Assembly: GCA_965213705.1 (NCBI GenBank)
Contig: OZ243913.1
Location: 2,432,001 to 2,496,000, forward strand
From: Trueperaceae bacterium
GTDB lineage: Bacteria; Deinococcota; Deinococci; Deinococcales; Trueperaceae
Direction: 5' to 3'
DNA: 64,000 nt
Made by a program: the position numbers and the translations under genes. Shown one piece after another: positions 2,561 through 49,033 of the stretch. Under the pieces are notes generated by a model. That model was not told the origin of the DNA, did not search any database, and saw only the letters and a program-made list of their open reading frames with translations. Position 1 is the first letter of the stretch. Each line of letters begins with the position of its first letter.

Positions 2561-2607
2561 TCGGTAATTAAATTACACGCAGACCTATCGTGAAACAAAT
2601 CACTTAT
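2561..2607 (-). repeat. Dispersed polar 47-bp site, copy 1
   Basis: - strand ATAAGTG-atttg-TTTCAC-gataggtctgcgt-GTAATT-taattaccga; most diverged full copy; lies between convergent genes. Confidence 0.6.
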
Positions 2608-2697
2608 TTTATCATGTGTATGGTTGCGGTCAGGACAGCTGGTTCTTCGCCCAAACAACTGTTTTTTTATATGACTTTATTTGTTAAGGTTTGGAAA

Positions 2698-2719
2698 ACC
2701 CGTGGCGTACGCCACGGGT
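2698..2719 (-). terminator. Probable terminator of the TRAP operon
   Basis: Perfect 22-bp palindrome acccgtggcgtacgccacgggt followed by a short T run on the - strand. Confidence 0.65.
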
Positions 2720-2729
2720 AAGGTCTCGT

Positions 2730-4712
2730 TTATTCTAAAGGATTCAGGACCACCCGGCCCCGCTCCTCCGTCTGCTCGCGGCGCAGCTTGGCGTAGTTGA
2801 TGCTCAACACGCCCAAAATCAGCACGAAACCCGCTATTTCCGCCCAATGGTGCGGCCAAAAAATGCCGACCGTCCCGACGGCGGCGAGGATGCGTGAAAA
2901 CCAATACATCTTCGTAAACATAAAGCCTTCCAACGCCGCTGCGAACGCGCCGAGCGCGGCAACCGCGGTGAGGACGTTCCAGGCGACCAACACGACCGGC
3001 CCGCCGACGATGATTTCCGGGTTGTAGACCATGAACAGCGGGATGAGGTACAGCCCCTTGGCGAACTTCCAGGCTTGCACGCCGGTCCGCATCGGGTCGG
3101 CCCCGGCGATGCCCGCCCCAGCGAACGCGGCCAGCGCGACCGGCGGCGTCACGTTCGAGTCTTGCGAGTACCAGAAGATGACGAGGTGCGCGATGATGAG
3201 CGGGATGCCGAACGTGTCGTGCAGCGCGGGCGCAGCCAACACCGCCAGGACGATGTAACTTGCCGTGACCGGCAAACCCATCCCCAGAATAAGGCTCGCA
3301 AAAATTAGAAAAACGAGCGCCAACAGCAAGTTGCCGCCCGACAGGCTTATCATCAGCGACGAGAACTTCAGCCCCAAGCCGGTCAAGCCCACCACCCCGA
3401 CCACCACGCCCGCGACCGCACAGGCGACGCTGACGGGAATGGCGTTTTTCGCGCCGGTCTCGAGCGCCACGACCAGGTTCTTCAGGCCCAGCCACAGGTA
3501 CGCGCCCCAGCTCAAACCGTCGTCGTCTTTCAAAAACACCCGCTGTACCAGCACCCGAGCCACCGACACCGCCAGCACCGCCAGGATGGCGATAAAGCCG
3601 ACTCGAGCCGGCGAAATGTTCAGCACCAGGAAGTAGATCAAAATCCCCAGCGGAATCAGAAAGTGCCAACCCGCGCGAAACACCTCGCCGACCTTGGGCA
3701 GCTCGGAGCGCGGCACGCCCTTCATGCCGCGTTTCGCCGCGATGATGTCGACGAACAAATAAACGGTCGCAAAGTACAAAATGGCGGGCAGCACGCTCAG
3801 TCTGACGATGTCCAAGTAGGGCAGCCCGGTGTACTCCGCAATTAAAAACGCGCCCGCGCCCATAATCGGCGGCATGATTTGCCCGCCCGTGCTCGCCGCC
3901 GCCTCGACGCCGCCGGCTTCTTCGGGCGTGTAGCCGAGCTTTTTCATCAGCGGAATCGTGAACGCGCCGCTCGTCACCACGTTGGCAATCGCGCTCCCTG
4001 AAATCGAGCCCAGCCCCGCCGAGGCCAGCACCGCCGCCTTGGCCGGGCCGCCCCGCTGCCGTCCGGCGGCGGCGTAAGCCATGTCGATAAAAAACTTGCC
4101 GCCGCCGGTCATCTCCAAAAACGCGCCGAACAGCACGAAAATAAACACAAACGTCGCCGCCACCCCGAGCGCGATGCCGTAAATCCCCTCTTGCCCCAAA
4201 TAGAGTTGCGCGACGATGCGGTCGACTTTGTAGCCCTTGTGCGCCAGGATGCCGGGCAGCACCCCGTTCAAAAAGGGCAGCGCCCCGCGGCTGCCGATCA
4301 TCGCGTAGGCGATAAAAGTGCCTGCGATAATCGTAATCGCGACGCCCACGACGCGGCGGCTGGCTTCCAGCAGCGTCACCACCGTAATCACCCCGGCGAC
4401 GATGTCCGTCTGCGTCCAAAACCCCGCCCGGTTGATAATCGCGTCCAGGTTGTAAATAAGGTAAAACCCCGAATACGCCGCGCCTGCGATAAACGCGCCG
4501 TCGATAAGCCAACCCAACACGCCGCGCCGCTTTTTAAACACCGGAAACAGCAAAAACGCCAGCACTAAAATAAACGCCAGGTGCGTCCCACGCTGGTAAA
4601 ACAGGTTCGGTTTGTAGATGCCCGCGGTGTAGAGCTGAAACAGCGACAGCGCCACGCCGATTATAGTTACTGCAACGACGACGGGCCGCGCGTAGTTCGG
4701 GGTTTGGGTCAT
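2730..4712 (-). CDS. TRAP transporter fused (4TM/12TM) permease, TAXI type
   Basis: GGPAKAAV, SGSAIANVV, ASTGGQIMPPIMGA and VTPPVALA motifs. Confidence 0.93.
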   Translation of the reverse strand: MTQTPNYARPVVVAVTIIGVALSLFQLYTAGIYKPNLFYQRGTHLAFILVLAFLLFPVFKKRRGVLGWLIDGAFIAGAAYSGFYLIYNLDAIINRAGFWTQTDIVAGVITVVTLLEASRRVVGVAITIIAGTFIAYAMIGSRGALPFLNGVLPGILAHKGYKVDRIVAQLYLGQEGIYGIALGVAATFVFIFVLFGAFLEMTGGGKFFIDMAYAAAGRQRGGPAKAAVLASAGLGSISGSAIANVVTSGAFTIPLMKKLGYTPEEAGGVEAAASTGGQIMPPIMGAGAFLIAEYTGLPYLDIVRLSVLPAILYFATVYLFVDIIAAKRGMKGVPRSELPKVGEVFRAGWHFLIPLGILIYFLVLNISPARVGFIAILAVLAVSVARVLVQRVFLKDDDGLSWGAYLWLGLKNLVVALETGAKNAIPVSVACAVAGVVVGVVGLTGLGLKFSSLMISLSGGNLLLALVFLIFASLILGMGLPVTASYIVLAVLAAPALHDTFGIPLIIAHLVIFWYSQDSNVTPPVALAAFAGAGIAGADPMRTGVQAWKFAKGLYLIPLFMVYNPEIIVGGPVVLVAWNVLTAVAALGAFAAALEGFMFTKMYWFSRILAAVGTVGIFWPHHWAEIAGFVLILGVLSINYAKLRREQTEERGRVVLNPLE

Positions 4713-4725
4713 GTCACCACCTTGT

Positions 4726-4762
4726 GGGGGAAGTAGGGGAGTGGGGGAGAGAGGGAGTAGGG
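4726..4762 (+). repeat. G-rich purine repeat (G-quadruplex-like)
   Basis: gggggaagtaggggagtgggggagagagggagtaggg; near-identical reverse copy at 44679-44715. Confidence 0.65.
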
Positions 4763-4822
4763 AAGGATATATTGGTGAGCGGAGGAGCCCGGAAAAAGCT
4801 TTTGACGTTTACTTTCTACTTT

Positions 4823-5329
4823 TCACTCGGTCCTCGGTACTTTTTCGCTCACCACCTCGAGCCGCACCCGTTGGTGTTCGGCCACGGCGCTCAGCGAGTA
4901 CAGTTTGCCCCCGACGATTAACCGGTGGTTTACCGCCTTGGAGCCGACCCGCAGAAAGTAAGCGTTGCCGGGAACGGGTTCGTCGATGCCCCGAATCCAG
5001 TAGCCATGCGCGCCGTCACTCGTGACGACGCCCCGCCCTGGAATGTGGCCGAGCCCGGCGTCGAACGCTTGAGTGTGCGAGGCGGTCAGGACCATGCGTT
5101 CACCGTCGTAAAAATAATAGTCGTCGACCAAAATACCGGTGACCGAGTGGTTCCACTCGACGACCCAGGCGTAAGGAGGTGTGAGCGCGATGTCGTAGAG
5201 AACCGCGCCGTCGTCGGCCCTCACGCGCAAGTGCGGCGTGGCAACAGCGCCGGCGGTCGTCAGCATAAAAACCGTCAGCAGCAAAAGGAGCAAGCCGCTA
5301 AGCTTGCTCCCTTGAAACGGCATTTTCAT
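4823..5329 (-). CDS. DUF1850-like TAXI-TRAP accessory protein
   Basis: Position between TAXI binding protein and permease; W.HSV and 'GAGLG'-like motifs. Confidence 0.75.
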   Translation of the reverse strand: MKMPFQGSKLSGLLLLLLTVFMLTTAGAVATPHLRVRADDGAVLYDIALTPPYAWVVEWNHSVTGILVDDYYFYDGERMVLTASHTQAFDAGLGHIPGRGVVTSDGAHGYWIRGIDEPVPGNAYFLRVGSKAVNHRLIVGGKLYSLSAVAEHQRVRLEVVSEKVPRTE

Positions 5330-5336
5330 TCTAAGT

Positions 5337-6320
5337 CTAGTTTCCCGTCATCAGGCGGTCGGGAATGGTCATGCCCTGCTCCTCGTAGTAGCGCAGCGCG
5401 CCGGGGTGCAAGGGAATGGGGGTGGACTCCAAGCTGAACTCGGGCGTGGTGTCTTTCGCCGACGGGTGAACCGCGATGACCTCGTCGATGTGGTCGTAGA
5501 TTGTCTTGATGAGGGTGTAGGCGAGTTCTTCGTCCATCTCGGCCCCCACTACGATGACGTTGGGCGTGCCCACGGTCGTGACGTCCGCGTCCTGGCCGGG
5601 ATAAAGGCCACTCGCGATGGTATAGCTTGCAAAAGTCGGGTCGGCGTCGATGCTCGCTTGCACCTCTTCCTCAGTCAGGGAGATGAGCACGACGTCGCGG
5701 GTGGTGGCGAGGTCGAGAAGCGAACTCGTCGGCGGCCCGACGCTCAAGAAGCCGGCGTCGAGCTGGCCGTCGCGCAGGGCGTCGGCGGTCTCGTTGAAGT
5801 TTAAGCGTTGCGCATTGATGTCGTCGTAGGTGATGCCGTTGGCGTTCAGGATGGTCTGCGCCGAAACTTCGGTGCCGCTGCCCGGCGCACCCACCGAGAT
5901 GCGCTTGCCCTGCAAGTCCTGCAGTGTGGTGATGCCCGAGCCTGCAAGCGCGACGATGTGAACGGCGTTCGGATAAGCCGAGCCGAGCGCGCGCAGGTTT
6001 TCAAGCGCGCCGGGCCGACCGTCCTGCCCGTCGAACGCGCCGGTGCCCGTGTAGGCCTGGTACACGGTGTCGGCCAGCGCGAGCGCGATGTCCGAGTCCC
6101 CTCGAGAAATTAAGCCCACGTTCTCGACCGACGCGCCGGTCACCTCGGCGACCGCCGTGTAGCCGTCCATGTACTTGTTGACGAGTTCGGCGTAAGCGCC
6201 GCCGGTCGGGTAGTACACCCCGCCGGTGCCGCCCGTGGCGATGGACAACTCGCCCTGGGCGAGAGCGCCCCCCAAAAGCAACGTGACGACGGAAACCAGT
6301 ACTGTGCGTGTAAAACGCAT
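5337..6320 (-). CDS. TAXI-family TRAP substrate-binding protein
   Basis: IATGGTGGVYYP, TGASVEN, GAPGSGT and PLHPGA motifs; ATG at 6320 with GGAGG. Confidence 0.93.
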   Translation of the reverse strand: MRFTRTVLVSVVTLLLGGALAQGELSIATGGTGGVYYPTGGAYAELVNKYMDGYTAVAEVTGASVENVGLISRGDSDIALALADTVYQAYTGTGAFDGQDGRPGALENLRALGSAYPNAVHIVALAGSGITTLQDLQGKRISVGAPGSGTEVSAQTILNANGITYDDINAQRLNFNETADALRDGQLDAGFLSVGPPTSSLLDLATTRDVVLISLTEEEVQASIDADPTFASYTIASGLYPGQDADVTTVGTPNVIVVGAEMDEELAYTLIKTIYDHIDEVIAVHPSAKDTTPEFSLESTPIPLHPGALRYYEEQGMTIPDRLMTGN

Positions 6321-6508
6321 TGTTACCTCCTTTGCTTGGTTTGCTCGACTATACCAGACCCACGTGACGAGTGGGGGATGCCGTTTTAACCTTTTGCACA
6401 GACTCGGCCCCGCGTTGGCCCGGCAAAGGTGACAGTTTCCCCACGGACTCGCTGTTTTTCGTGCTACTTTGCTCGAGACTGTTCGCACCGCCGACCGAGG
6501 TAACGCCT

Positions 6509-6844
6509 ATGTCCCCAAAAACCGAGTTTCGACAAACCGAGCCCCGACAAACCGAGCCCCGACAAACCAAACAAACCCCGATTTCGCGCAAGTACGACAC
6601 GCCTGCGATAAACGAACTGTTGCTGCGGATTTTCGGCGAAGAACACCGGCGCCTCATCCACGCTACCTTGGCCGATTTGGACGCAGAATACCCACAGGGA
6701 GCCGGTTCGGGCGTTGCCAAACAAACGCAGACGCCGGCGCCGACGGTAGCGGAGACCCGCACCCGCCCCGACCCTTTCGAAACCATCGGCGCGGAACTGT
6801 TGCGCGAAGAGCGGTTGGACTTTCTCGAGGCGTTCAAACGCTAG
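6509..6844 (+). CDS. Hypothetical protein with RQTEP repeats
   Basis: ATG at 6509 after GAGG; 15-bp tandem repeat at 6530-6568. Confidence 0.5.
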   Translation: MSPKTEFRQTEPRQTEPRQTKQTPISRKYDTPAINELLLRIFGEEHRRLIHATLADLDAEYPQGAGSGVAKQTQTPAPTVAETRTRPDPFETIGAELLREERLDFLEAFKR

Positions 6845-7241
6845 AATCTAAGGCAAAAGAAGGGTAGGTTTTTCGAGCGTGTTTCGACGTCTGGCTAGCC
6901 CCTTTCGTTCGCGAAAGGTACCGACTCGTTCCAGCTTCGCCGGACTTCGGCGTTGAGCCACGACCAAAAAGTCTAAAGCTTGTACGGATTCCGATAAGAC
7001 AGCTAACAAACCTAGCAAGAGTTGTTCGCTTCCTTCGGAACCCGTGTCTTCTTGCTACGCTCTTTTTAACCAAGGTCATGAACCGGATAGGGTACAAGGC
7101 TTGGCACGCCGCGAGCCTTGCCGCTCTCAAACTCCCGCTCCGCAAACGATTCGAGATACACTGTTCAGCACAGCCGACCGAACGCGTGACCCCAAACACC
7201 GTGTTCGGCAGGAATAGTGTGCAGTCGGTAGGGAGGACGTT

Positions 7242-7709
7242 TTGATCGAGCCTGCAACGTTTCGGGCGGCCTTGGGCCGTTTTGCCAGCGGCGTCACCGT
7301 CGTGACGACAACTATGGACGACGAGGTTTACGGCATGACGGCGAGTGCCTTCTTGTCGGTTTCCCTGAAACCGCCGCTCGTGCTCGTGTCGGTCGACCGG
7401 CACGCGCACATGCACGCGTATCTCAAACAAACCAGGCGCTACGGCGTCAGCGTGTTGGGCGCTGAGCAGACCGTCCACTCCAACCACTTCGCGGGTTGGG
7501 AACAGCCGGGCTTCGCGCCGGAATTTCGCCGGCTGGACGGCGTGCCGGTGCTGGCCGGAGCCATCAGCACGCTCGCCGTAAGTGTCGTCGCCGTCCACGA
7601 GGCGGGCGACCACAGCCTGTTCGTCGGTGAGGTCACCGAGCTGAATTACACCGACGACGCACCGCTGCTTTACTTCGTCGGCAAGTACGGCGGGCTGCAG
7701 CCCGGGTAG
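7242..7709 (+). CDS. Flavin reductase family protein
   Basis: FRAALGRFASGVTVVT, SVSLKPPLV and AGDH motifs; GGAGG before TTG. Confidence 0.9.
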   Translation: MIEPATFRAALGRFASGVTVVTTTMDDEVYGMTASAFLSVSLKPPLVLVSVDRHAHMHAYLKQTRRYGVSVLGAEQTVHSNHFAGWEQPGFAPEFRRLDGVPVLAGAISTLAVSVVAVHEAGDHSLFVGEVTELNYTDDAPLLYFVGKYGGLQPG

Positions 7710-7715
7710 GGCGTG

Positions 7716-9182: not shown

Positions 9183-9183
9183 G

Positions 9184-10176: not shown

Positions 10177-10188
10177 GTCTACTCCGGT

Positions 10189-11709: not shown

Positions 11710-11893
11710 GGCAGAGCCCAGGCGTCAGCATTCAGAAGTCGGTAGGGTGTCGCTCAGACGAATCAGACAAAAACGTCTCCGAGGTCGGTGAGAGCTGGGC
11801 TCGAGCGGGTCAACGTTCAAAGTTCTGAGGCCGCCTCTACAAACTTTCCCAAGGTCCAAGAAACGTTTTCGAGGAGAGTTTGGATGTCGAGGA

Positions 11894-12808: not shown

Positions 12809-12888
12809 AAAAAACTCCTGTTCTGAATGGGGTTTGAGTAAGGGAGTAGAGTCAGCGGCTTTTATTTACCCCAACACTCTCTACCTCG

Positions 12889-15008: not shown

Positions 15009-15093
15009 GGCTTTCCCCTTTCGTCCACTTTCACCAGAGTAGCAGGCGGCCGCGCCATAAGCTCTTCTTTGGGTTCACACGACCTTAAGCAAA

Positions 15094-15140
15094 GCCACAA
15101 AGTTTTCACGAGCGTGCCTGTTGTGAAAATAATAACTTGA
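15094..15140 (-). repeat. Dispersed polar 47-bp site, copy 2
   Basis: - strand TCAAGTT-attat-TTTCAC-aacaggcacgctc-GTGAAA-actttgtggc. Confidence 0.75.
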
Positions 15141-22409: not shown

Positions 22410-23516
22410 TACGAATTCCGAGTATTTCCGCATCACACTCTGGGCCACCAGTGGTAGAGGGTTTCGCTGGAGAGTAGCTGGGGCTGGGTCAGTAGAAAAG
22501 CGCAGCGTTCACTAAGCTGCTGTTGGAGTTGGTCAAGGGTGTCGAAGGTTTTGTTGACAAGCGGCTCGTCGGTTAGCCGCCATAACCTTTCGGCGGGTTG
22601 CAACTCGGGTGAGTAGGGCGGCAGGTCGATGAGTTCGATGCCTGAGGGAGGCTCGAGGCGCTTAGAGGTATGCCAACCGGCTTGGTCTTGCAACAGTAAG
22701 ATGTGTTTATGCTCAGAAGCGCCGACACTTTGAGCGAAGTTTTTTAGAACGCAGCTGTAAGCCTCTACACTTACCGTCGGCAAGATGTACCAAACGCTTT
22801 GACCGCTTTGCGGATTCACAAACGCCCACAAGTACAGCCACTGGTAACGGTGCTGCACACGGATGATAGGACGTTGGCCTCTTGATTCCCAAACTTTACG
22901 CAAAATAGGTTTGAGGCCGAGCCGGTGCTCGTCCATCGTCCAAACTTCAACCTGTTCGTGTTGTTGACGAGCTTGGGCTACAAGAGTCGGGAGGGTGTTT
23001 TTTTGAACTCGTCTTGCAAGGCCAGGTCAGCTTTGGCGTGCTGGGGACGTGGGCTCTGCAGGCTGAAGCCGAGCGTGTCGAGCAGTTCATAGGCTCTTTG
23101 CAGGTAAACCTCTTTGTCCAAGTTCTCTTTAATCCAACGTTGAATCCTGATAGCGCTCCACACACCCTCTTCCTCGCGGTTCGCTTGTATTGCCCTTAAA
23201 AGTTGAGCGCGTTCGCTTTCATCAAGAAGCGGTGGACAACCGGGATTTTCATGGCGGCGGTCACGCAAGCCTACTAGCCCTTCAGTGTTGTAACGCTTGA
23301 CGACTTCGCAGATGCTGATACGGTTGTAGGCCGTGAGCTTGACTACTTCGCCGCGGCTTTTGCCCTCGGCTAAAAACCAAACCACCTGAAGTCTGCGCCG
23401 TTCGACCGCGTCGCCGCTGGCCCGGTAGTAAGCTCGTAGTTCTTCGACGCTGTGTTGCAGTTTGAGCGGGATGAGCTTAGCCATGAGCAATGATAGCGGA
23501 TTTTTAGGAAACCGTA
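22410..23516 (-). mobile_element. IS630-family insertion sequence
   Basis: Imperfect terminal inverted repeats TACGAATTCC / TACGGTTTCC; flanking TAA direct repeats; two-ORF transposase. Confidence 0.88.
22433..23484 (-). CDS. IS630 transposase (orfA 22978-23484 HTH joined to DDE orfB by a -1 frameshift)
   Basis: DEHRLG, DQAGWH and LPPYSPELQPAE motifs; A7 run at 22998-23004 joins the frames. Confidence 0.88.
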
Positions 23517-23614
23517 TAACACCGTTCAGTTCGTCGCCGGCGTGCCCTAAAAAAGGCGGTTGCCTTGGGGCAGCCGCCTCGAGTCTCTCAAAATACTCAG
23601 GACAGGTCAAAGGG

Positions 23615-23974
23615 TCACGGCAGGTTCGCGGGCAACCCGTTGCTGCGCACGCCGTCGACCATGACAAAAATGAAGCCCGAGCCCGCCCCGTCGGGAATGC
23701 CGACCTCGATGCGCGACGGGCTCCAGCTGAGGGCGTTGACCCGCACGCCGCCCCGGCCGGCCACGTCGGCGCCCAAAAGGACGTAGCTGTCGGCAGCTTG
23801 TCCCAACAAACCGTCGCCGAAATAGCGCCCCTGCAGCACGACCGGAGCGTCGCGCGTTTGGGGAGCGGTCACCGAATACAGCGTCGGCAAGACCTGGTTC
23901 TCGATGCTGACCGTGGGCGCGCAGGCCGCCAACAGCAGCAGCAGACCTCCCAGCCCTAGCTTCAAAACCTTCAC
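23615..23974 (-). CDS. Small lipoprotein with IPT/TIG-like domain
   Basis: GGAGG then GTG at 23974; lipobox LAAC; 'WSPSRIEV.IP..AGSG...V...GVRSN' pattern. Confidence 0.7.
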   Translation of the reverse strand: MKVLKLGLGGLLLLLAACAPTVSIENQVLPTLYSVTAPQTRDAPVVLQGRYFGDGLLGQAADSYVLLGADVAGRGGVRVNALSWSPSRIEVGIPDGAGSGFIFVMVDGVRSNGLPANLP

Positions 23975-29620: not shown

Positions 29621-29733
29621 CGCAACCTCCTCAGCAAAAACCGCACGAGCAGTTCCCAAAGTATAGAGAATTTGCAACTTCGACCAGGTGTAAATGTACT
29701 CTTCCGGAAGTGATTCGGTCAAAAACCAATAAA

Positions 29734-29780
29734 GGAACAAAAATTGCACAAACAAGTTCATCGTGAAAGTTCTCACTTAA
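29734..29780 (-). repeat. Dispersed polar 47-bp site, copy 3 (just upstream of the smc promoter)
   Basis: - strand TTAAGTG-agaac-TTTCAC-gatgaacttgttt-GTGCAA-tttttgttcc. Confidence 0.78.
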
Positions 29781-29813: not shown

Positions 29814-32800
29814 GTGCAGCTGACCTCGTTGACGTTACAGGGTTTCAAAAGTTTCGGTGACCGGACGGTGCTGACGTTTGCGCCCGGCGTGACAGCCGTC
29901 GTCGGGCCGAACGGGTCGGGCAAGTCCAACCTGATAGAGGCCCTGCGCTGGGCGACGGGTGGCGGCCGAGCGAGCAGCTACCGGGCGGACGAGAAGACCG
30001 ACCTGATTTTTCACGGGGCGAGCGGCAAGCGGAGCGTCAGCTACGCCGAAGTGGGTCTCAGTTTGCGCGACGGCGCGCGCAGCCACCACGTGGTGCGCAA
30101 CTTGTTCCGGGACGGCTCGTCCAAGCTCAAACTGAACGGTCGCGCGGCCAGGTTTGTCGACGTCGAGGAGGTTTTGGGGGGCAGCGGGCTCGGGCGCGGC
30201 AGCTTGGCCGTCATCGGCCAGGGCGAGGTCGGCGGGGTCTTGATGGCGGGTCCGGAAAAGTTGCTCGAGTACGTGGCCGAAGCCGCCGGGGTCGCCAAAC
30301 TCAGCGGCCGCCGCGACCTCAGCCTGGCCCGGCTGGACACCGCGCACGCTCACCTGTTGCGCTTGGCCGACCGTGAAGAGGTGTTGGCCCTCGAGGTGAG
30401 TGCCCTCGCCGAAGAGGCCGAGCAAGCCGCGTGCTATGTGGCGCTGAACGCCGAAGCGTTGCGTTTGCGCTACACCTACGCGGCCGTCCGAGTGGGGAGT
30501 TTGCAGGCGGAGGTCGCGCAGCTGACAGCGCAGCAAGACGACCTGACGGCGACCCTGACGGCAGGTCGGCGGGCCTTGAAAGACCTGCAGGGCGCGTGGG
30601 GCGAGGCGAGAAGTCGCGCTGCCCGGCTCGAGACCCACTACCGCGACTTAGCGACCGAAGCCGAAGCGCGCCGCGGCGACTTGCGCGTGGCCGAGGAGCG
30701 CCTGCAGGGACTGCGGGCGCGCGCCACCGCGGCGACGCGCGAACGGGACGCAGTGACCGAAGAAATGACCCGGCTCGCCACGCTGAGCGCTCCCGTCGCG
30801 CCCGACCTAAACTTGGCCGACGTGAAGACGGCCGCCCGGCACGCCGAAGAAGCGCACGAGGCGTTGGCGCGCGACCTTGCCACAGCCGAGGCCGACGAGC
30901 AAAACGCGCTGCGCCGCTTGGAGGCGCAGCGCTTGGAGCAACGGCGCGAGGAGCAGGCTTCAGCGAGCCACCGCGCACGCGAGGTCCAACTGCTGGCACA
31001 ACGCGCCGACCTGCAAGCGCGCGCGGCGGCTGTTCGGCTGCCTGTCGACGACGTGGGCGCGCTGCGCGAGGACTTAGAAATTGCCAGCCGACTCTACGAC
31101 CTCGCCAAACGCCGCCAGGCCGAAGCTATCGCGGCCGTCACGGCCCAGCAGGGCGTCCACGCTCGAGCCGCGGCGGAAGCGGCGGCGCTGGCGCGTTCAG
31201 TTGAACGCGCCAGCGCCGCGCTCAAGGCCCGCCGCGGGTTCGCACAGGGCCCCAAACACGCGCTCACCGCCAACCTGCCAGGCGTCTTCGGGGCCGTCGC
31301 CGACCTCGTTCGGGTGCCCGAGCCGTACCGCGTCGCCCTCGCCAGCGCGCTGGGTCGGCGGGTCGAGTACGTCGTCGTCGACACTGCCGACACGGCGCAA
31401 ACGGTTCTCTCTTACGTCAAACAGCGCGGCGGCTGGGTGACCGTGTTGCCGCTCGACCTGGTCGCGGGCAAACCCGGTACGTTGCCGCCGGGCGTCAAGA
31501 ACGCACCCGGCGTCGTCGGGCTCGCCACCGACCTCGTCGAGGTCGGTGAGGCGTTTCGGGGTGTTTTCTATCAACTTTTGGGTACGACGACGCTCGTTGA
31601 AACCTTACAAGTGGGTGTCACTTTGGCGAAAACGCAGCGCACCCGGCCGCGCTTAGTCAGTTTGGCGGGCGACGTCGTCGAGAGTTACGGTGCCTTGTCG
31701 GGCGGTCAAAGCCGCGTCGCGGACTCGGTGCTGGGTCTCGCCGCCGAGGTGGAGGAGGCCGAGGCGAGTGCCGAAAAAGCGCAAAGGGGTGCCGCCGAGC
31801 AAGAGGTCAGGCTGCGCGCTTTTCAAGACGCCGCCAAAACCGCCCAAACCGAAACGGCGTCGGCCGCAACCGTCCTGAAAAGCTTGCAAGCTAGGCTCGC
31901 CGCCGTTGAAGAAGCCGTCAACCTGGCTCGCTCGTTGCGTGGGCAGGTGGGTGAGCAGTTGCAAGACGTTGCGGCGCAACTGGAAGCGCTCGAGCCCCCG
32001 CCCGCCCGCCTTGACCGCGCGGGTTTGGTGGCGGCCGAGGCGGAAGCCGTCCAACTTGCCGAACGGGTGCGCGCCTTGCGCGCCGCCGCCACGCAACGCG
32101 CCACCACGTTTCAAGAGGCGCGCCAAACTTTACTGCTCGGCGAGCAGCGCTGGCAACAGTACGCCGAAGCGCAGCGACGGTTCGAAGCGGCCGAGCAGCA
32201 GCGCGCCCGGCTGGCCGAACGGCTCGGCGACTTGCTCACCCTGCAAGGTGACGTTGAACGCGACCTGCAGGCGGCGCACCGGGCGTTTACAACGGCTCAG
32301 GCCGCTCAGCCCAGCGACCTTGAAACCAAAAAAGCCGCCTGGCAAACAACCAAGGCCGAGGCCGACCGTCTCGAGGCCGCCCTGTCGCCCCTGAGCGAGA
32401 GCCAGGCCGGTTACGCCGAAGACTTGGAGCGCGTCAAGGTGTCTTTAGCCCGGCGCGAGGCCGCCCTGGAGCTGGCCCAAGAGGACTTGGCCGGGTTTCC
32501 ACCCGGTTTGGAGCGGTTGGACAGGAGCGCCCGAGCCTGCCGCGAACAACTCACCGAAGTCGAAACCGAGCTGACAGCGCTGGGACCCGTCAACCACCGC
32601 GCCACTCAAGACGTGCAAGACAGCCGCGCACGTCTCGCCGAACTGCAAGCACAACTTGCCGAAGCCCGGCAAGCCGTCGCCGAGTTAAGAGAAGCCTTGG
32701 CGACCCTCGACGCGGAGACGAGTTCGCGCTTGGCGGTGGCGACCGGCGCGTTGCGCCGCAACTTCAAACACTACGTTGGCGAGTTGTTCGGGGCCGAGGC

Positions 32801-33194
32801 CGAAGCGGATGTAGAGACGCTCTACGAAGAGCAGCGCCCGGTGGGCATCCGCATCGCGCTGCAGCCGCCGGGTAAGCAAACGACGGCCCTGAACTTGCTC
32901 TCGGTCGGTGAACGGACGATGGGCGCGCTGGCGTTTTTGTTCTCGCTCATGCAGGGCGACCCCGCGCAACGCCTGCCCCTCGCTGTTTTAGACGAAGTCG
33001 ACGCGCCCCTCGACGAGGCGAACATTCGCCGCTTCTGCGCGTTCTTAGAGCAGCTCGCCAAGCAAGGCACGCAGTTTGTCCTCATCACCCACCAAAAAGC
33101 AACCTTTGAGATTGCCGACGTCCTGTGGGGCGTGACCTCCGACCGGGGGGTCAGCCGGCTGTTTAGCATTCGCCGTGAAGACCCCGTAGCTTAG
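29814..33194 (+). CDS. smc: Chromosome segregation protein SMC
   Basis: [14 protein letters not shown], hinge, coiled coils, LSVGE and LDEVDAPLD. Confidence 0.93.
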
Positions 33195-33212
33195 GTGATT
33201 TCAACCAGTTAA

Positions 33213-33259
33213 GCAACAAAAAACGCACAAGCTTAACTGTTGTGAAATAAAACACTTGA
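33213..33259 (-). repeat. Dispersed polar 47-bp site, copy 4 (between convergent smc and recombinase)
   Basis: - strand TCAAGTG-tttta-TTTCAC-aacagttaagctt-GTGCGT-tttttgttgc. Confidence 0.78.
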
Positions 33260-34414: not shown

Positions 34415-34485
34415 TGGGTTGTAAGTCCTGACAGGTGGAAAGAGGTATCATCATAGCCCATTTTAATCTCTTTTCAAATCGGTGA

Positions 34486-34520
34486 AAAGAAACATTTTCA
34501 CTTGTTTATACATTTTGAGT
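34486..34520 (-). repeat. Partial copy of the polar site upstream of the recombinase
   Basis: - strand ACTCAA-aatgtataaacaa-GTGAAA-atgtttcttt; the AAGTG box is missing. Confidence 0.4.
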
Positions 34521-34559: not shown

Positions 34560-34964
34560 GTGATGCAAATCAACCCCTTTCGTGTTTGTCCCAACGGTCA
34601 CTACCCATTGGGGCTACGAATCTCTCATCTATGTTTGAGGCTAGCAGTTGTATTGACCATATCGTCTATTCTGCTTTTACCTTTGACTGAGTATCTCTGC
34701 ATAGGTGTACGGCTTTTTTGTGGGTCGGGGGGCACCGTGTTTAAGCTTTATACATGGTGGCTCTGGCTATCTGGGCCTGTTCTACTTGCTCATGCGATTA
34801 TTGAATCTCGGGTAATTACATCTAGGCTTAAGGAAAATCTAGAACTTGAAACGGGTCAGTGTCTGTGCAGTAACAAACAAAAGGATGGGCTTTTCACAGC
34901 GGCGTATCTGTTGTTTTGGATTTTGTCGCCAATTATTATCTTGCTCTTAAATAGTTTAGTTTAG
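34560..34964 (+). CDS. Low-GC hypothetical membrane protein
   Basis: 134-aa ORF with about three hydrophobic segments and AT-rich codons. Confidence 0.5.
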   Translation: MMQINPFRVCPNGHYPLGLRISHLCLRLAVVLTISSILLLPLTEYLCIGVRLFCGSGGTVFKLYTWWLWLSGPVLLAHAIIESRVITSRLKENLELETGQCLCSNKQKDGLFTAAYLLFWILSPIIILLLNSLV

Positions 34965-34991: not shown

Positions 34992-35039
34992 TCAAGTTAA
35001 AAGATTCACAATAATTACAGGTCGTGAAATTTTTGTTTC
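34992..35039 (+). repeat. Dispersed polar site, copy 5 (first copy on the + strand)
   Basis: TCAAGTT-aaaag-ATTCAC-aataattacaggtc-GTGAAA-tttttgtttc (14-bp spacer). Confidence 0.75.
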
Positions 35040-35095
35040 TTTTATAAGCTTAGTCGGGGGCTCGAGCCCCCGACCATTCGGGGTACACTGAGAGC

Positions 35096-38836
<3,741 letters not shown>

Positions 38837-38947
38837 ACCCCGGTTCGATTGGGGTTTACAACGGGTCGGTAAACGTTCCTGCCGAAATGGCCCAAGCAAT
38901 TCGAGTTTTCTTGCAGACGCGCCCATACACACTCCTGCACAGAATCT

Positions 38948-38994
38948 GTAGGTGATATATTTCACAATAGCTTAGCGCGTGAACTTTTTCTTTC
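38948..38994 (+). repeat. Dispersed polar 47-bp site, copy 6
   Basis: GTAGGTG-atata-TTTCAC-aatagcttagcgc-GTGAAC-tttttctttc; between convergent genes. Confidence 0.78.
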
Positions 38995-39042
38995 GAGTTC
39001 AAAGTTTTTTGGTCTAATCCGAGTGCAGGCCGACGAGCTATG

Positions 39043-40940: not shown

Positions 40941-41173
40941 AACGCTAAGCTAGCAGGCAAACCTTTACAAAATTCTTACGCGGACTCCGGCACAAGGGCA
41001 AGACCGCGGCGTCCGCCGGGCGCTTGGCTTAGGGGCGGCTCGAGCGGTCCCGACGGTTGGTCATTCGAATAGGTGCAGCGGCCCGCACCGTCACCCAGTC
41101 TAGTCCGCGCCGCCGGCCTCCAAACCGCAACCGTCACACCGGGCGCGGGTTTTCGGCTTGTGTCGTGAAAGGG

Positions 41174-42307: not shown

Positions 42308-42479
42308 CTATAAACCATAAACCACTGCCCCCGCCCCAGACTGAGAGGGTGCTCGCGTTTGGGACCTTTGCCGAACAGACTGCCAACCAGACTGCCGAAC
42401 AGACTACCGACCCTCTCGGCGACGGCGGGTAGACTGGGACGCGTGCCGGCCCCAACGAGGCGGCGCTTTAGGAGAAAGT

Positions 42480-43373
42480 ATGAACCGAATCCTACCTGTC
42501 GTTCTGGTCGTGAGCTTGTTGCTCGTGAGCGGGTTGTGGCTGTCGCGGCGCGCCGTTGCCGAGGCGGCGACAGAACAAGCTACCGAGCCGGTCGAAACGG
42601 TCTTAGGTGCCGAACTGCCCGAAGGCTTTACCCTTACGCCTTTTTTGAGCGAGGAACCGGTGCGCAGCTTCGAGGCGGCGGACGAGGTTTTGGAGCCCGG
42701 CGTCGACTACCAGGCCATCATCGTCACCAACGACGGACCCCTGCGTATTGACCTGTACGAGGACGAGGCCCCGACGACGGTCAACAACTTTGTGTTTTTG
42801 ACGCGCAACCATTACTACGACGGTGTCGTCTTTCACCGGGTGCTGGAAGACTTTATGGCTCAAACCGGCGACCCGACCGGCACCGGCACCGGCGGGCCGG
42901 GTTATCAGTTCGCCAACGAAACCTCACCCGACTTAAACCATGACCAGCGCGGCGTCGTGTCGATGGCGAACGCCGGGCCGGACACGAACGGCTCACAGTT
43001 TTTTATCACCTTCGGCCCCACCCCCCAACTCGACGGCGGTTACAACGTTTTCGGGCAAGTCGTCGAAGGCGACGCGGTGCTTGACGACATTACCCGCATC
43101 GACCCGCAAACCCCGAGCGCCGTCGTCGCGCCGGGTGACACACTCGAAACGCTTTCGGAGCAGGGCATCACGCTCGCCGGCGACGCTTCGCAAACCGTGG
43201 AGGCTTACCTCGCCGACAAACTCGGCGCAGAGACGACCCTCGGCCAAACCTTCGACATCGACGGGTACAAGGCGGTGGCGGGCCGGCGCGGCAACGACGA
43301 CGCTTACGGCTTTTTTCCGCAACCCGACGTCATGGAGCACGTCTACATCATTCAAAAACCGAAAAGCGAGTAG
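42480..43373 (+). CDS. Cyclophilin-type peptidyl-prolyl isomerase, membrane-anchored or exported
   Basis: [15 protein letters not shown] and [16 protein letters not shown] motifs; N-terminal hydrophobic segment. Confidence 0.92.
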
Positions 43374-43382
43374 GAGAGACTA

Positions 43383-43943
43383 ATGGCTTATACACCCGAC
43401 GGTTACACCCAAACCGAACCCCTGTCCGACGAGCGCAAGACAAAGTTTTCCAAAGCGGAGGACGTTTTAGAGCAGGGCAAGGATTACCAGGCCGTCATCG
43501 AAACGAGCAAGGGCCGCGTGGTCGTCGACCTGTTTCAGGACGAGGCCCCGATGACGGTCAACAACTTTGTGTTTTTGGCGCGCAACCGTTACTACGACAG
43601 CGTCGTCTTTCACCGCGTTTTGGACGGCTTTATGGCTCAGGGCGGCGACCCGACCGGGTCCGGGCGCGGTGGGCCGGGTTACACCTTCGGCGACGAGACG
43701 AGCAACGGCAAACGCCACGACTCCAAAGGCGTGTTGTCGATGGCGAACGCCGGGCCGGGGACGAACGGCTCGCAGTTTTTCATCACTTTTACAGCGACAC
43801 CGCACTTGAACGGCAAACACACCGTCTTCGGCAAGGTCGTCGAGGGCGAAGAGGTCTTGGACAAACTCACCCGCATCGACCCGTCACGGCCCGGTGGGGC
43901 GACGCCGGACAAGATGGAGCAGGTTTATATCGTCGAGAAGTAG
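43383..43943 (+). CDS. Cyclophilin-type peptidyl-prolyl isomerase, cytoplasmic
   Basis: [23 protein letters not shown] and HTVFG motifs. Confidence 0.94.
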
Positions 43944-44029
43944 GGGCGAGTGAGGGAGTGGGAGGTGGGGAGTAAAGGCAAAAGCTTTTACTCCTTTTCT
44001 CTCTGCTCCCTTACTTCTGTCACTACGTC

Positions 44030-44701
44030 TCAAACAGCAACGACGACTTGAAAAGAAGGGTCGTGCTCGAGGTCGGGCGTCCCAGACACGACGAAATTCG
44101 CCCGTTCCCACGGCCGCTGCTCGGCTAAAAAAGGCAATTCTGCGGCCATCCACTCGTCCCAGAACACAACGGCCCCCGCGTCACCACCATCGCGAGCAAT
44201 GCCTCTAATTCTGGCTTGCTCTAGGTCCGCCTGCACCCACACCACTGTATCAACTATGTGCATCAGTTCGTGGCGGGCCGCGCCGACGCCTTCTAAAACC
44301 AGCAGCGAACAGTTTGGGGGTACTTTAATCGCGCCTTTCCGGTCTCGCTCTAGCCACGCCGGAGGTCGGTACTGCACGGCCTGACCGCGGCGGGCGGGCT
44401 CGAGCACTTCCTCGAGCAGCAACTCCGTCCAGTCGAAAAAGGAGTGATGCCAGGCAACGTCGTCGGTGTGGACCACGGCAGAGCCGGGAACGGCGCGGTG
44501 AAGCGTTCTAGCAAGGGTCGTCTTCCCGCTCGCGCTGCGCCCGTCGACGGCGACGACTTGTGTTTTATCCGGCGCGTGGGGAAGCTCTCGAAGTGATTGA
44601 ACGAACGTTTCTAGGGGCTCGACTTTCCACGGCCCGAAGTAAGGCTCTTCAGGAGGGAGAGAAAAAGCTCTCGACTCTCCCCTACTCCCTCTCTCCCCCA
44701 C
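44030..44701 (-). CDS. P-loop kinase-like protein (uridine kinase-like); start uncertain
   Basis: VAVDGRSASGKTT, VHTDD and LEGVG motifs. Confidence 0.75.
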   Translation of the reverse strand: MGERGSRGESRAFSLPPEEPYFGPWKVEPLETFVQSLRELPHAPDKTQVVAVDGRSASGKTTLARTLHRAVPGSAVVHTDDVAWHHSFFDWTELLLEEVLEPARRGQAVQYRPPAWLERDRKGAIKVPPNCSLLVLEGVGAARHELMHIVDTVVWVQADLEQARIRGIARDGGDAGAVVFWDEWMAAELPFLAEQRPWERANFVVSGTPDLEHDPSFQVVVAV

Positions 44702-44715
44702 GCCCCTACTCTCCC
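44679..44715 (-). repeat. G-rich repeat copy overlapping the thrS stop codon
   Basis: - strand gggagagtaggggcgtgggggagagagggagtagggg. Confidence 0.65.
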
Positions 44716-46709
44716 GAATTTTCCACCGCCACAGGCTCGACTTTTAAACGGCGCTCTTTCGCGTTCATACGCAAGTGCTCGACGAACGCCTGGGCCGGCA
44801 CCCCGTTCTGGTTCGGCTCCTGGCGACTCCGGAACGAGACCGAGCCCGCCTCGGCTTCCTGGTCGCCGACGATGGCGGTGTAGGGGATTTTGTAAATCTC
44901 GGCGTCGCGGACTTTGGCGTTCATGCGCTCGCTGCGCGCGTCGACCGTGGCGCGTAGTCCGGCGTGCTCGAGGCTTTCTTTAAGGCTGTCCGCATAAGAA
45001 ACGTGCCGGTCGGCGATGGGTACGATGCGCACCTGCTCGGGCGCGAGCCACAGCGGAAAGTCCCCGGCGAAGTGCTCAATCATCACGCCCATAAAGCGCT
45101 CGGTCGAGCCGGTCACGGCGCGGTGAATCACCACCGGCGTGTGCCGCTCGCCGTCCTCGCCGACGTACTCGCAGCCCAAGCGCTCGGGTTGGATGAAGTC
45201 GACCTGGAGGGTCGAGAGTTGCCACTCGCGCCCGAGCACGTCCTGGGCCATAAAGTCGGCCTTGGGACCGTAAAAGGCGGCCTCGCCGTAGGCTTCGGTG
45301 TAGGGCACACCCTCGGCTTGAAGCGCGTCGCGCAGCGCTTGGGTGGCCTTGGTCCACTTCGCGTCGTCGTCGACGTACTTGCCCGCCTCGCCGCGCAAAC
45401 TGAGTTGGACCGAGTAGGCGTTGAAGGCGTAGGTATCGAGCACCTCGCGGATGAGTTTGAGGGCGAGGGCGAACTCCGCTTGAATTTGTTCTTCGGTGCA
45501 GAAGATGTGGCAGTCGTCCTGGGTGAGCGAGCGCACCCGCGTCAAGCCGTTCAACTCGCCCGACTTTTCGTAGCGGTAGAGCGTCGCGAATTCCGCGTAG
45601 CGCAGCGGCAACTCGCGGTACGAGTGGAGCCGGGTGTTGTAGAGCGTCATGTGACTGGGGCAGTTCATCGGTTTGAGGCGCAGCCGCACGCCGTCGTCAT
45701 CCATCGGGGGAAACATCGACTCGGCGTAGTTGTCCAGGTGGCCTGACTTTTCATACAAACTTTCTTTGACGAGGTGGCCGGTCCAGACGTGTTCGTAGCC
45801 GTAGCGGGTCTGCACCTCGCGGACGAAGCGTTCCATCTCAAAGCGGACGCGCTCGCCGCGCGGCAAAAACAGCGGGATGCCCGAGCCTACGTCGTCCGAA
45901 AAAGCGAACAGGTCGAGTTCGCGGCCGAGTTTGCGGTGGTCGCGTTTTTTGGCTTCCTCGAGCTGCCACAGGTAGTGCTCTAAGTCTTCCTTGCTGCGAA
46001 AAGCCACGCCGTAGATGCGTTGGAGCTGCGGCCGCGTCTCGTCGCCGCGCCAGTACGCGCCGGCCACGCTCATGAGTTTGAAGTGCGGCGGGATGTCACC
46101 GGTATTCGGCAGGTGCGGGCCGCGGCAGAGGTCGGTAAACCCCTCTCCCCCACCCTGTTCATAACCACCCTGTTCATAAAAGGTGATGGCCTCGCCTTCC
46201 GGCAAACCCTCGATGAGTTCGACCTTGTAGGGGTCGCCCTGTTTTTGGTAGCGCTCCAGGGCCTCAGCACGCGGTAACTCGAACTTGCGCAGCGGCAGCT
46301 TCGCCTTGAGGATGGCGCGCATCGTTTCTTCCAGGGCCGCCAGGTCCTCGGGCGTGAGGCTTTCGGGCAGGTCGAAGTCGTAGTAGAAGCCGTTTTCGAT
46401 GACCGGGCCGACGCCCATCTTCACGTCGCCGCGTTTGAAACCCTTGGCGACGAAGTGCTCCACGACCGCCTGGGCCATGACGTGGGCCAGGGTGTGCCGC
46501 GCGAGCTGCAGGCTCGCCTCGTCGCGCCCGGTGAGAATCGACACCTCCGCGCCCTCGGGCAGCTCGGTGAACAGGTCGGTGAGCCGGCCGTTCACCGTCG
46601 CGCCAAGGGCGGCCTTGGCAAGACCCGGTCCGACGGCGGCGGCCACGTCTTTGGGGGTAGCGGGTTCGTTCAGGGTCAGCTGTTTGCCGTCAGGAAGCGT
46701 GACGAGCAT
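44706..46709 (-). CDS. thrS: Threonine--tRNA ligase
   Basis: TGS domain; DLCRGPH, RDHRKLG, KPMNCP and AAFYGPK motifs. Confidence 0.97.
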   Translation of the reverse strand: MLVTLPDGKQLTLNEPATPKDVAAAVGPGLAKAALGATVNGRLTDLFTELPEGAEVSILTGRDEASLQLARHTLAHVMAQAVVEHFVAKGFKRGDVKMGVGPVIENGFYYDFDLPESLTPEDLAALEETMRAILKAKLPLRKFELPRAEALERYQKQGDPYKVELIEGLPEGEAITFYEQGGYEQGGGEGFTDLCRGPHLPNTGDIPPHFKLMSVAGAYWRGDETRPQLQRIYGVAFRSKEDLEHYLWQLEEAKKRDHRKLGRELDLFAFSDDVGSGIPLFLPRGERVRFEMERFVREVQTRYGYEHVWTGHLVKESLYEKSGHLDNYAESMFPPMDDDGVRLRLKPMNCPSHMTLYNTRLHSYRELPLRYAEFATLYRYEKSGELNGLTRVRSLTQDDCHIFCTEEQIQAEFALALKLIREVLDTYAFNAYSVQLSLRGEAGKYVDDDAKWTKATQALRDALQAEGVPYTEAYGEAAFYGPKADFMAQDVLGREWQLSTLQVDFIQPERLGCEYVGEDGERHTPVVIHRAVTGSTERFMGVMIEHFAGDFPLWLAPEQVRIVPIADRHVSYADSLKESLEHAGLRATVDARSERMNAKVRDAEIYKIPYTAIVGDQEAEAGSVSFRSRQEPNQNGVPAQAFVEHLRMNAKERRLKVEPVAVENSGE

Positions 46710-47078
46710 AGAAACACCTCGGTTCTTTGGTAAATACAGACTGTAAACACGAATTGTTGAGTGCGGATTGCTTGCAATTTTGGCGTTAAAACGCTTGTGT
46801 CGGTCGGCCTCGGCTCAGCACGTTCGCGTCGACCAAAGGTCCAGGTAAGCGTGTAGAGGCGCGCGGCCGTTTACAAGTAAGCCGTCCATAAGTAACCAAA
46901 GTGTAGCACGGGCGTCGGGGGCTGTATATCTCTCACACGGCTCACTGACCGGGTATCTCACAGTCCCTATCCACGCGCTCTGTTACGATTGGGCCATAAA
47001 CCGGTTCGGCCCGTAAAACGGTACAGCAACCTACCGGCTGCACACTCGCCGAAAAGCCGAGACCCGAAGGAGTACGAC

Positions 47079-47516
47079 GTGAGCGGGGGAAACATCTTGC
47101 TGGTAGAGGACAACCAAGACGACGTCGACCTGACCCTGCGCGCGCTCGCCAAGGCGGCCATCGACATCGACGTGGTGCGCGACGGCGGCGAGGCGCTGGA
47201 CTACCTGTTGCGCCGGGCGGCTTTTGAAGACGTCGACAAACCGCTGCCCAACCTCGTGCTGCTCGACATCAACTTGCCCAAGTTGAGCGGGCTGGAGGTG
47301 TTGAGAGAGTTGCGCCGCAACGAGCCGACGCGGCTTTTGCCGGTGGTGATGTTGACTACGTCCAAGCAAGAGCAAGACATCTTGGAGAGCTATGCGGGCG
47401 GGGCCAACAGCTACGTCCGCAAACCCGTGAGCTACCCGGAGTTCGTGGCGGCGGTCAACCAGCTCGGGGTTTACTGGTTGGGTTTGAACCAAGCACCGTG
47501 GAAGACCGCGTCGTAA
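47079..47516 (+). CDS. Single-domain response regulator (Rcp1-like)
   Basis: LLVED, LLDINLP, LTTS and GANSYVRKP motifs; AGGAG before GTG at 47079. Confidence 0.9.
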   Translation: MSGGNILLVEDNQDDVDLTLRALAKAAIDIDVVRDGGEALDYLLRRAAFEDVDKPLPNLVLLDINLPKLSGLEVLRELRRNEPTRLLPVVMLTTSKQEQDILESYAGGANSYVRKPVSYPEFVAAVNQLGVYWLGLNQAPWKTAS

Positions 47517-48688
47517 ACCGAACCTTAAAACTCTTGTTGGTGGAGGACTCCGCCGACGACGCCGAACTCGTCCAGTTGGCGCTGGTTCGCAGCGGCTACC
47601 GGCTCGAGACCTGTCAATTCAGCGATTTGGGCGCTGTGAGGAGGGCTTTGCGCGACCAGGTCTGGGACGTCGTCGTGACCGACCACGCCATGCCGGGCCT
47701 GAGTTCCGGCGACGTTATCGACCTTGTGCCCGCCGGCACGCCTTGTATCGTCGTATCGGGAGCCGTCGGCGAGGAGACGGCGGTGAGCTTGCTCCAGCGC
47801 GGGGCGGTCGACTACGTCAACAAAAACAACCTGCGCAGGCTTGGCGGCGCGGTCAGCCGGGCGCTGAGCGAAACCCAAAACTTGCAAGCCCGCCGCCGCG
47901 CCGAGGCCGAACTGCGCACCGCGCACGCGGACTTAGAAAAGCGTGTGCAGTTGCGCACGGCCGAGTTGCAGCTCGCCAACGCCCGGTTGCGCGAAGAGAT
48001 GGACGAGCGGCGCAAGGCCGAAACAGAACTCAGCAACGCGCGCCTTTTTTTGGTGCGGCTACGCGAACAAGAACGCTTAAACTTGTCCAGAGAAATACAC
48101 GACGGCGTCGTCCAGGACTTGATAGGTGTCGGCTACGCGGTGGCCGACACCGAGCGCAAAGTCGTCGCGGGCCAAACCCTGAGCGACACCGTCACCCTTT
48201 TGCGGCGGCACCGCGCCGACATTTTAGCGTCGGTCCGCCGCTTGCGCACCCTCGTCAAAGGTTTGCGCCCACCCGGCCTACACGAGTTCGGTTTGGAACA
48301 CGCCTTGCAGGTGTTTGTGGGTTCCCTGGACACGTCCGGACGACCCGCTTGTCACCTCACCGTGACCGAAGACGCGGTCGACTTGTCCGAAGCGGTGAGT
48401 CAAGCGTTTTTTCGAGTAGCCCAAGAAGCGGTTCGAAACGCCTTGCGCCACGCCCGAGCGACCACCGTCGACATCGCAGTGTCGGTTCGCGACGACGGGG
48501 CGTACCTGGTAGTCAGCGACGACGGCTCAGGTTTCAGGGTGCCGGAACGGCTCGGTAGCCTGGCTGCGGACGAACATTTCGGTTTGGTCGGCATGGACGA
48601 ACACGCTCAACTCGTCGGCGGGCAACTGTACCTGGAGTCCGCGCCCGGCCACGGCACGCGCGTGACGGTGGTCGTCCCGCTGGACTGA
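47498..48688 (+). CDS. Hybrid REC plus HisKA_3 (NarX/UhpB-type) histidine kinase
   Basis: N-terminal receiver domain; REIHDGVVQ, QEAVRNALRHA and DDGSGF motifs. Confidence 0.88.
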   Translation: MEDRVVNRTLKLLLVEDSADDAELVQLALVRSGYRLETCQFSDLGAVRRALRDQVWDVVVTDHAMPGLSSGDVIDLVPAGTPCIVVSGAVGEETAVSLLQRGAVDYVNKNNLRRLGGAVSRALSETQNLQARRRAEAELRTAHADLEKRVQLRTAELQLANARLREEMDERRKAETELSNARLFLVRLREQERLNLSREIHDGVVQDLIGVGYAVADTERKVVAGQTLSDTVTLLRRHRADILASVRRLRTLVKGLRPPGLHEFGLEHALQVFVGSLDTSGRPACHLTVTEDAVDLSEAVSQAFFRVAQEAVRNALRHARATTVDIAVSVRDDGAYLVVSDDGSGFRVPERLGSLAADEHFGLVGMDEHAQLVGGQLYLESAPGHGTRVTVVVPLD

Positions 48689-48986
48689 CGCGCCCGAGCA
48701 CTTGACGCCGGCAAAAGAGTTTGCGCGTCCCCAACATTCCTGCAGATGCGGCCGAAACTGGCAAGGTTTACACAAGACGCTAAACCTCGTCACGAGTTTT
48801 CGGTCTTTTTCGCTCGAGCTGTAAGGGTTACAGGGTGCTGCTTGAGCCGGGGACGTACCGGCTCGTTGCACACCTCGACCGTGGTTTAAGCCTGACACGA
48901 GTGGGGCAAAGAACAGGCGACCGGGTCAAGATTACGCGGCCGCCGCCGTTGGTCTCTCCTCGTTGGCAGTCAAATTGATAGATTTC

Positions 48987-49033
48987 TCAAGTGAGTGTTT
49001 TCACAATAACTATGCGCGTGAAATGTTTGTTCC
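48987..49033 (+). repeat. Dispersed polar 47-bp site, copy 7
   Basis: TCAAGTG-agtgt-TTTCAC-aataactatgcgc-GTGAAA-tgtttgttcc. Confidence 0.8.

Follow-up and report, generated by a model that had tools for sequence, protein, structure and literature searches.

A polar array of bipartite sites around a putative dif in Deinococcota: a possible replication fork trap

Tus-Ter and RTP-Ter are the only two fork traps described so far on bacterial chromosomes, and the majority of bacteria are believed to lack one (PMC10331603). In Bacillus subtilis each Ter site has a strong half paired with a weak one, and a fork that meets the strong half first is blocked; in the Tus systems the innermost ter sites flank dif; and both tus and rtp are autoregulated through an adjacent site (PMC10331603). 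Here we describe an array of ~48-bp polar sites in the genome of a Trueperaceae bacterium (Deinococcota). The window is the whole 64,000-nucleotide stretch analyzed, contig OZ243913.1, positions 2,432,001-2,496,000 (G000:C1 in our labels), which is part of a single 4.25-Mb contig; as dnaA is found at 442 kb of the genome, the window falls in the half-way zone of the terminus. By analogy with the described systems we propose, at a probability of roughly 55%, that the array could be a hitherto undescribed kind of replication fork trap, with its own terminator protein.

Layout and anatomy of the array

The genome contains nine strong copies of the ~48-bp site, divided four and five between the two strands. 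Seven of these are in the window, at the positions and on the strands reported in an initial annotation of the same DNA (table 1), which had also proposed a polar, positional system at a replichore boundary. This proposal holds: the orientation switches across the 1.7-kb gap between the innermost sites, which contains an Xer-type tyrosine recombinase gene and a single 28-bp dif-like site, it coincides with that dif-like site and with the flip of an octamer resembling FtsK-orienting polar sequences (KOPS), and the layout is kept phylum-wide. A scan of the genome and of the Deinococcota, suggested in the same annotation, returned matches that are neither spread genome-wide nor randomly stranded.

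A model trained solely on 55 sites of another family and applied to the 4.25-Mb genome placed all nine copies within the top 10 genome matches, the maximum on the reversed genome being 5.7 bits; eight copies scored 14-41 bits, and the copy ending at 33259 scored 7.0, below one chance match at 8.0. A cross-phylum model gave nine matches at 28-47 bits and one at 19, with a control maximum of 9.9. Because both models score all nine copies above the reversed or control maximum, the array copies are not due to chance. The match at 19 bits is a weak array-like copy at genome position 1,242,654, in left-arm orientation and 1.2 Mb from the dif-like site, which sits ~220 bp downstream of another tyrosine recombinase (G000:C1:1242619-1243800).

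The consensus derived from 94 sites (loci L021-L080 plus the window) reads WAGTGAAWNNWTTCACGATW, followed by a linker and then GNTCGTGAAWTTTTTGTT. The first block is a palindrome, GTGAA-N4-TTCAC, in which the spacer from GTGA to TCAC is 6 bp in 118 of 121 counts, and the gap from this block to the GTGA that follows measures 13 or 14 bp in most cases, with a range of 12-15 by lineage. The fixed spacer within the first block and the variable gap that follows it indicate two modules, a strong dyad and then a degenerate dyad; in the second, one half is good and the other is conserved and degenerate, the A of TCAC being found in 0/94. The core dyad had previously been parsed as TTTCAC-N13-GTGAAA, which spans this variable gap (12-15 bp in nearly all counts), whereas the fixed dyad is GTGA-N6-TCAC. 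With the left sites in minus and the right sites in plus orientation, every strong dyad is turned to the centre: in each site it points toward the dif-like site and the degenerate dyad toward the origin. The spacers of all nine copies in this genome are different, and the B block of the 2561 copy scores ~0 bits under the cross-phylum model. With respect to gene context, 29 of the 71 resolved sites are convergent, 18 divergent, and 24 tandem (23 of the 94 sites are unresolved); the three window copies assigned earlier to convergent gaps (truD/DctM, smc/recombinase, and dnaE/next open reading frame [ORF]) are indeed found there.

The putative dif and a converging octamer

The element at 34486 that had been taken for a partial copy of the array site is a different one, a single-copy 11+6+11 inverted repeat, and no site model returned 34486. 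Its sequence is ATCGGTGAAAA GAAACA TTTTCACTTGT (genome position 2,466,478), it occurs once in the genome, and its inner arms and spacer are conserved in genome G001. An 11+6+11 inverted repeat was found near the 5' end in 24 of the 55 recombinase matches and in 31 there was none (a strict test, with no shuffle control); additional such repeats were found in further loci beyond these 55. The features of a dif present here are arms of ~11 bp around 6 bp, a single copy, the polarity switch, an intact tyrosine recombinase, and FtsK, with ftsK encoded in this genome and found in 5/5 genomes tested. From these sequence features we read 34478-34505 as a putative dif. Three published sources could bear on this claim: a supplementary figure on "putative dif sites" from a preprint on Deinococcus radiodurans FtsK (10.1101/2022.07.15.500248), the supplement of a study according to which neither polarized KOPS nor a canonical dif were confidently identified in D. 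radiodurans (PMC13342612), and the supplement of a study reporting no ScpA in that species (PMC11758949). The recombinase, P0001, shows weak similarity to XerA/XerD structures (E 2e-6 to 7e-4).

The octamer GGGGGAGA was picked from regions away from the terminus. Its counts are 41+/6- on one chromosome arm versus 4+/43- on the other arm, with a flip located between 2,461,141 and ~2,470,000 that brackets the dif-like site. In genome G137 the flip lies between 1,941,263 and 1,980,305, around the array centre at 1,971,725 and away from the antipode of dnaA (~1.75 Mb), with counts of 54+/11- before and 13+/65- after the centre (the latter by subtraction). Octamer positions for G024 covered a single strand and do not enter this comparison. 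Judged by this distribution, GGGGGAGA behaves as the KOPS-equivalent of the lineage. The canonical KOPS GGGNAGGG is weakly polar in the Trueperaceae genome (177/111 and 141/176), canonical KOPS variants show weak or no polarity, and the change points of all 6-mers and all 8-mers gave no information. A CRISPR-like array of 33 short-repeat copies with a ~71-bp period (G000:C1:4137637-4139913) fed some of the skewed octamers.

Table 1. Features of the array, its centre, and its surroundings; positions are those of the window unless marked as genome positions.
Feature	Position	Strand	Remark
Polar array site, left arm	2560-2607	-	Convergent truD/DctM gap; intact strong dyad with a poor distal half
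Polar array site, left arm	15093-15140	-	Divergent gap ahead of smpB
Polar array site, left arm	29733-29780	-	Upstream of smc
Innermost left array site	33212-33259	-	Convergent smc/recombinase gap
Innermost right array site	34992-35040	+	One extra base in the linker; upstream of dnaE
Polar array site, right arm	38948-38995	+	Convergent dnaE/next-ORF gap
Polar array site, right arm	48987-49034	+	
Strong right-arm copies beyond the window	Genome 2,603,279 and 2,822,829	+	Genome-wide scan
dif-like site	34478-34505	.	11+6+11 bp, perfect inner 7-bp arms
Xer-type tyrosine recombinase P0001	33362-34414	-	Catalytic R-K-H-R-H-Y set complete; orthologue marks array centre phylum-wide
Predicted recombinase promoter, sigma-70-like	34450-34477	-	Consensus match only; -35 box abuts dif-like site
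KOPS-like octamer GGGGGAGA	4743-4750, also 15399, 29142	+	Pointing to putative dif
KOPS-like octamer GGGGGAGA	38801-38808, also 44692, 46144	-	Pointing to putative dif
smc	29814-33194	+	Context; adjoins recombinase in array-less genomes too
dnaE	35096-38836	+	Context

Several observations concern the surroundings of the centre. The genome encodes two further paralogues of P0001, near-identical to each other by eye (G000:C1:1276276-1277166 and 3382451-3382966), the second of which is truncated and adjoins a tRNA-like sequence, and in genomes G117 and G092 (loci L062 and L328) paired tyrosine recombinase genes lie side by side at the array centre. The terminus neighbours aspS, smc, smpB, and a YegS-like lipid kinase gene are conserved across families, array or not (loci L021-L080). 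The array-negative G068 (locus L316, G068:C1:1358514) has kept a dif-like repeat, with aspS on one side and the lipid kinase gene on the other, and no recombinase gene was found within the 60 kb fetched around it. An AT-rich ORF of 134 codons lies between the dif-like site and the innermost right site (34560-34964, plus strand); it matches no Pfam family, has no homologue in any of the loci fetched, that of G001 among them, and is possibly a recent insertion, or not a gene. The window furthermore encodes an IS630-type transposase split over two ORFs with the helix-turn-helix and DDE parts (22433-23667, minus strand), and has no Rfam match at gathering score.

Distribution across Deinococcota

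An exact pattern of the site was found in 91 of 151 genomes of the phylum (reversed control 0): 65/82 in family f2, 22/48 in f4, 1/8 in f3, and 2/12 in f1. A family-wide pattern was found in 25 of 102 genomes, a tally including the unpublished genome G219, on which no other result rests. Among the 80 loci listed from a scan of all GTDB, 62 are named Deinococcota and all of these score at least 31 bits on the full model, the other 18 scoring 29 or less; Deinococcus radiomollis, D. yunweiensis, and D. xinjiangensis are among the named carriers whose minus-strand sites precede the plus-strand ones. Viral contigs gave 35 scattered matches, none above 26 bits. It should be noted that absence here means "not found" by pattern search: 14 of 22 f2 genomes, chosen mostly as negatives, gave no pattern match, and one pattern-negative genome (G087) has two weak sites in the correct orientation.

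All 224 listed sites (52 contigs, 49 genomes) face the centre, given as the recombinase or the dif-like repeat, in a hand-compiled tally that excludes contigs without a located centre and in which related genomes are not independent; a further 197 matches of the exact-pattern search were unlisted and so are outside this tally. The inner gap has a median of 11.8 kb (range 1.5-88 kb), and 90% of the sites are within 30 kb. The centre lies 46.4-56.3% of the chromosome round from dnaA in 16/16 long chromosomes examined. A site at the 3' end of ligA recurs in five f1 genomes, and in the three of these in which it shares a contig with the centre it is 17, 182, and 356 kb away, on either side, always facing the centre.

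In genome G017, two plasmid-like contigs (L059, G017:C63, and L060, G017:C110) encode the recombinase with a dif-like site and carry one opposed pair of array sites, which means that array sites can move together with a xer-dif module; the sites of these contigs have a shorter linker, and toxin-antitoxin-like genes surround them. A supposed group of Thermus-like genomes carrying the array without the recombinase proved wrong, as a profile search of G079 and G027 turned up a divergent recombinase at both centres.

Candidate functions and known systems

In the trap that we propose, each ~48-bp site would probably be bound by two dimers of the terminator protein. If the analogy with RTP-Ter holds, a fork coming from the origin would meet the weak half first and pass, and a fork that has run past dif would meet the strong half first and be held, so that forks would fuse beside dif; there the local single Xer recombinase, directed by FtsK via the KOPS-like octamer, may resolve dimers. 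The strong half facing forks that leave the dif zone is what a trap requires. In favour of this reading are the small number of sites in two opposed clusters with the switch at the dif-like site, the uniform facing of a centre about half-way round from dnaA, the bipartite build, the frequency of sites in convergent gaps, and the outlying ligA site that keeps its orientation. At slightly better than even odds, this would be a third and independent fork trap, of the Deinococcota, related to neither Tus nor RTP, present in the ancestor of the phylum and repeatedly lost, with a terminator of an unrecognized family. Neither of the two described terminators was found: Tus (PF05472) gave 0/5 in array-positive genomes, with the Escherichia coli control positive, and RTP (PF02334) gave 0/5 over the cut-off in array-positive genomes, with two sub-threshold matches (E 0.003 and 0.14).

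Several points weigh against a trap. Polarity alone fits any motor tracking along DNA, FtsK included. Clustering of neighbouring genes revealed no shared DNA-binding gene beside the sites or in the terminus regions among the fetched loci (in most genomes the outer sites were not fetched), and neither a terminator gene nor an autoregulatory site was found in these loci. There is no pattern match in genera g12 (0/14), g6 (0/9), g33 (0/7), and g10 (0/8), and the repeated loss of the array contrasts with the known traps, which are said to be strictly kept once acquired (PMC10331603). The comparison with cumulative GC skew proposed by the initial annotation places the raw peak at 2,544,697, 78 kb past the dif-like site (2,466 kb) and nearer the antipode of dnaA (2,565 kb); local skew tracks gene orientation, and the switch corrected for gene orientation is at 2,488,835, with a bootstrap range of 2.13-2.81 Mb.

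Of the alternatives, an aid to FtsK-Xer fits the array geometry equally well as the fork trap, and yet we consider it unlikely. The sites would here be protein-bound polar signposts that load FtsK toward dif, stop overshoot, or anchor dif at the septum, leaving forks unaffected. The array centres on dif and not on the exact antipode, as seen in G137, where the centre is at 56.3% and the octamer flips there too; in G017 an opposed pair flanks xer on both plasmid-like contigs; and ftsK was detected in every genome tested. However, polarity is already supplied by the short octamer, whose role such an aid would duplicate, no array was found in genomes that retain xer, dif, and ftsK, and we know of no precedent for 48-bp bipartite FtsK sites.

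It is more doubtful that the Xer recombinase itself binds the array, be it at accessory, non-recombining sites (SMC unloading as at XDS) or at spare dif sites. The initial annotation had suggested the adjacent recombinase as the reader, and in most genomes the centre holds the recombinase gene, smc adjoins it in the Trueperaceae genome, the strong dyad has a 6-bp spacer, and the dif arms of this genome happen to start GTGAA. The recombinase has its own dif-like site, however, and the arms of this site vary among genomes in which the array motif is constant (G000, G019, G021, G024, G027, G030, G033, and G137), and each occurs without the other: recombinase and dif without the array in G006, G009, G011, G012, G026, and G034, and the array in G056, G156, and G142, where it surrounds a dif-like repeat and the central stretch that was fetched yielded no recombinase gene. 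The recombinase is therefore probably not the reader. Its family is also found on 59 Deinococcus plasmids, yet the listed array matches of multi-replicon genomes (e.g., G057, G150, G156, and G055) are all chromosomal. Spare dif sites with unique spacers are ruled out by G082, where direct repeats share spacers and would delete DNA upon recombination. With regard to SMC unloading, ScpA was matched in 10 of 46 genomes, all of family f1, array or not, and in 0/31 genomes outside this family, strong array carriers included, although such a search may overlook a divergent ScpA.

A terminus macrodomain or nucleoid organizer like MatP/matS is improbable: matS is a short palindrome without polarity, and an organizer of this kind leaves the strict polarity of the array unexplained. 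The sites do cluster and peak around dif as matS does, but matS is far more numerous, with 28 in E. coli (PMC10945525).

An ordinary regulon, of the CRP-family protein DdrI or of Rex, with targets near the terminus by chance, is the least credible, as the polar sites are restricted to the terminus, frequently lie between the ends of genes, and adjoin unrelated genes, Rex is encoded in 54 of 55 genomes, array or not, with the same recognition helix, and a tree of 56 CRP-family proteins, which took in 5 of G012's 7 strong matches, has no clade confined to array-positive genomes. On the other side, the strong dyad resembles the Rex operator. It is likewise similar to the CRP target TGTGA(N6)TCACA, bound by DdrI, which has been linked to segregation (PMC11253593); Rex is treated in PMC8063818. 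A co-opted DdrI or Rex may be the array-binding protein.

Other candidates for the binder were rejected: the genes between a recurrent 1.6-kb site pair have translations that look like alpha/beta hydrolases, and the ORF at 49074-49877 does not track the array. The only parB lies near dnaA and is flanked by two canonical parS sites, at 437,653 and 439,806, and the likeness to parS pointed out earlier is thus incidental. As explanations, none of the CRP family, Rex, ParB, ScpA, Tus, or RTP accounts for the array.

We found no description of the array in the full-text literature, a search whose coverage includes few subscription journals. If the trap reading is true, a third trap in a deep phylum with tractable strains, whose close relatives keep or lose the array, would make it possible to ask what drives the evolution of traps, and whether polarity generally arises by way of strong/weak tandems. 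Irrespective of what the array does, candidate dif sites and a KOPS-like octamer are now available for the Deinococcota.

Compared with the known systems, the central element on its own resembles those with a single recombinase, for which we know of no flanking protein-bound array. It shares with XerH/difH, XerS, and XerA one recombinase, ~11-bp arms around a 6-bp centre, and a site by the gene (PMC5241119), whereas here the recombinase is of a Deinococcota type and the arms change by genome. As in KOPS/FtsK, polarity converges on dif, here via GGGGGAGA, and the 48-bp array is separate from this octamer and rarer. Like XerD/XDS and MatP/matS it has multiple putative protein-binding sites concentrated at the terminus (PMC10945525), but the motif is unrelated to the local dif arms and strictly polar, and ScpA was undetected in most carriers. 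The letters TTTCAC and GTGAAA are common to parS/ParB; parS, however, is a 16-bp palindrome without spacer near the origin, and the array is at the opposite pole. A CRP or Rex regulon has dispersed promoter sites of related genes without a strand rule, which is not what we find.

The two fork traps are the closest. Polar sites with dif between the innermost pair, as in Tus-Ter, are found here too (PMC10331603), although Tus is a monomer on an asymmetric site, the array site is a tandem of dyads, and no Tus match was obtained. From RTP-Ter the array differs in its motif, in the ~48-bp site with a variable linker, and in that there was no RTP match over the cut-off and no autoregulated terminator gene was found; it shares with it few sites in two opposed terminus clusters and strong and weak halves with the strong one toward the fork to be stopped (PMC10331603), the tandem geometry of strong and weak being present in the sequence itself. 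Judged by the five array-positive genomes searched, the array lies outside the Tus and RTP families, but it most likely works like them.

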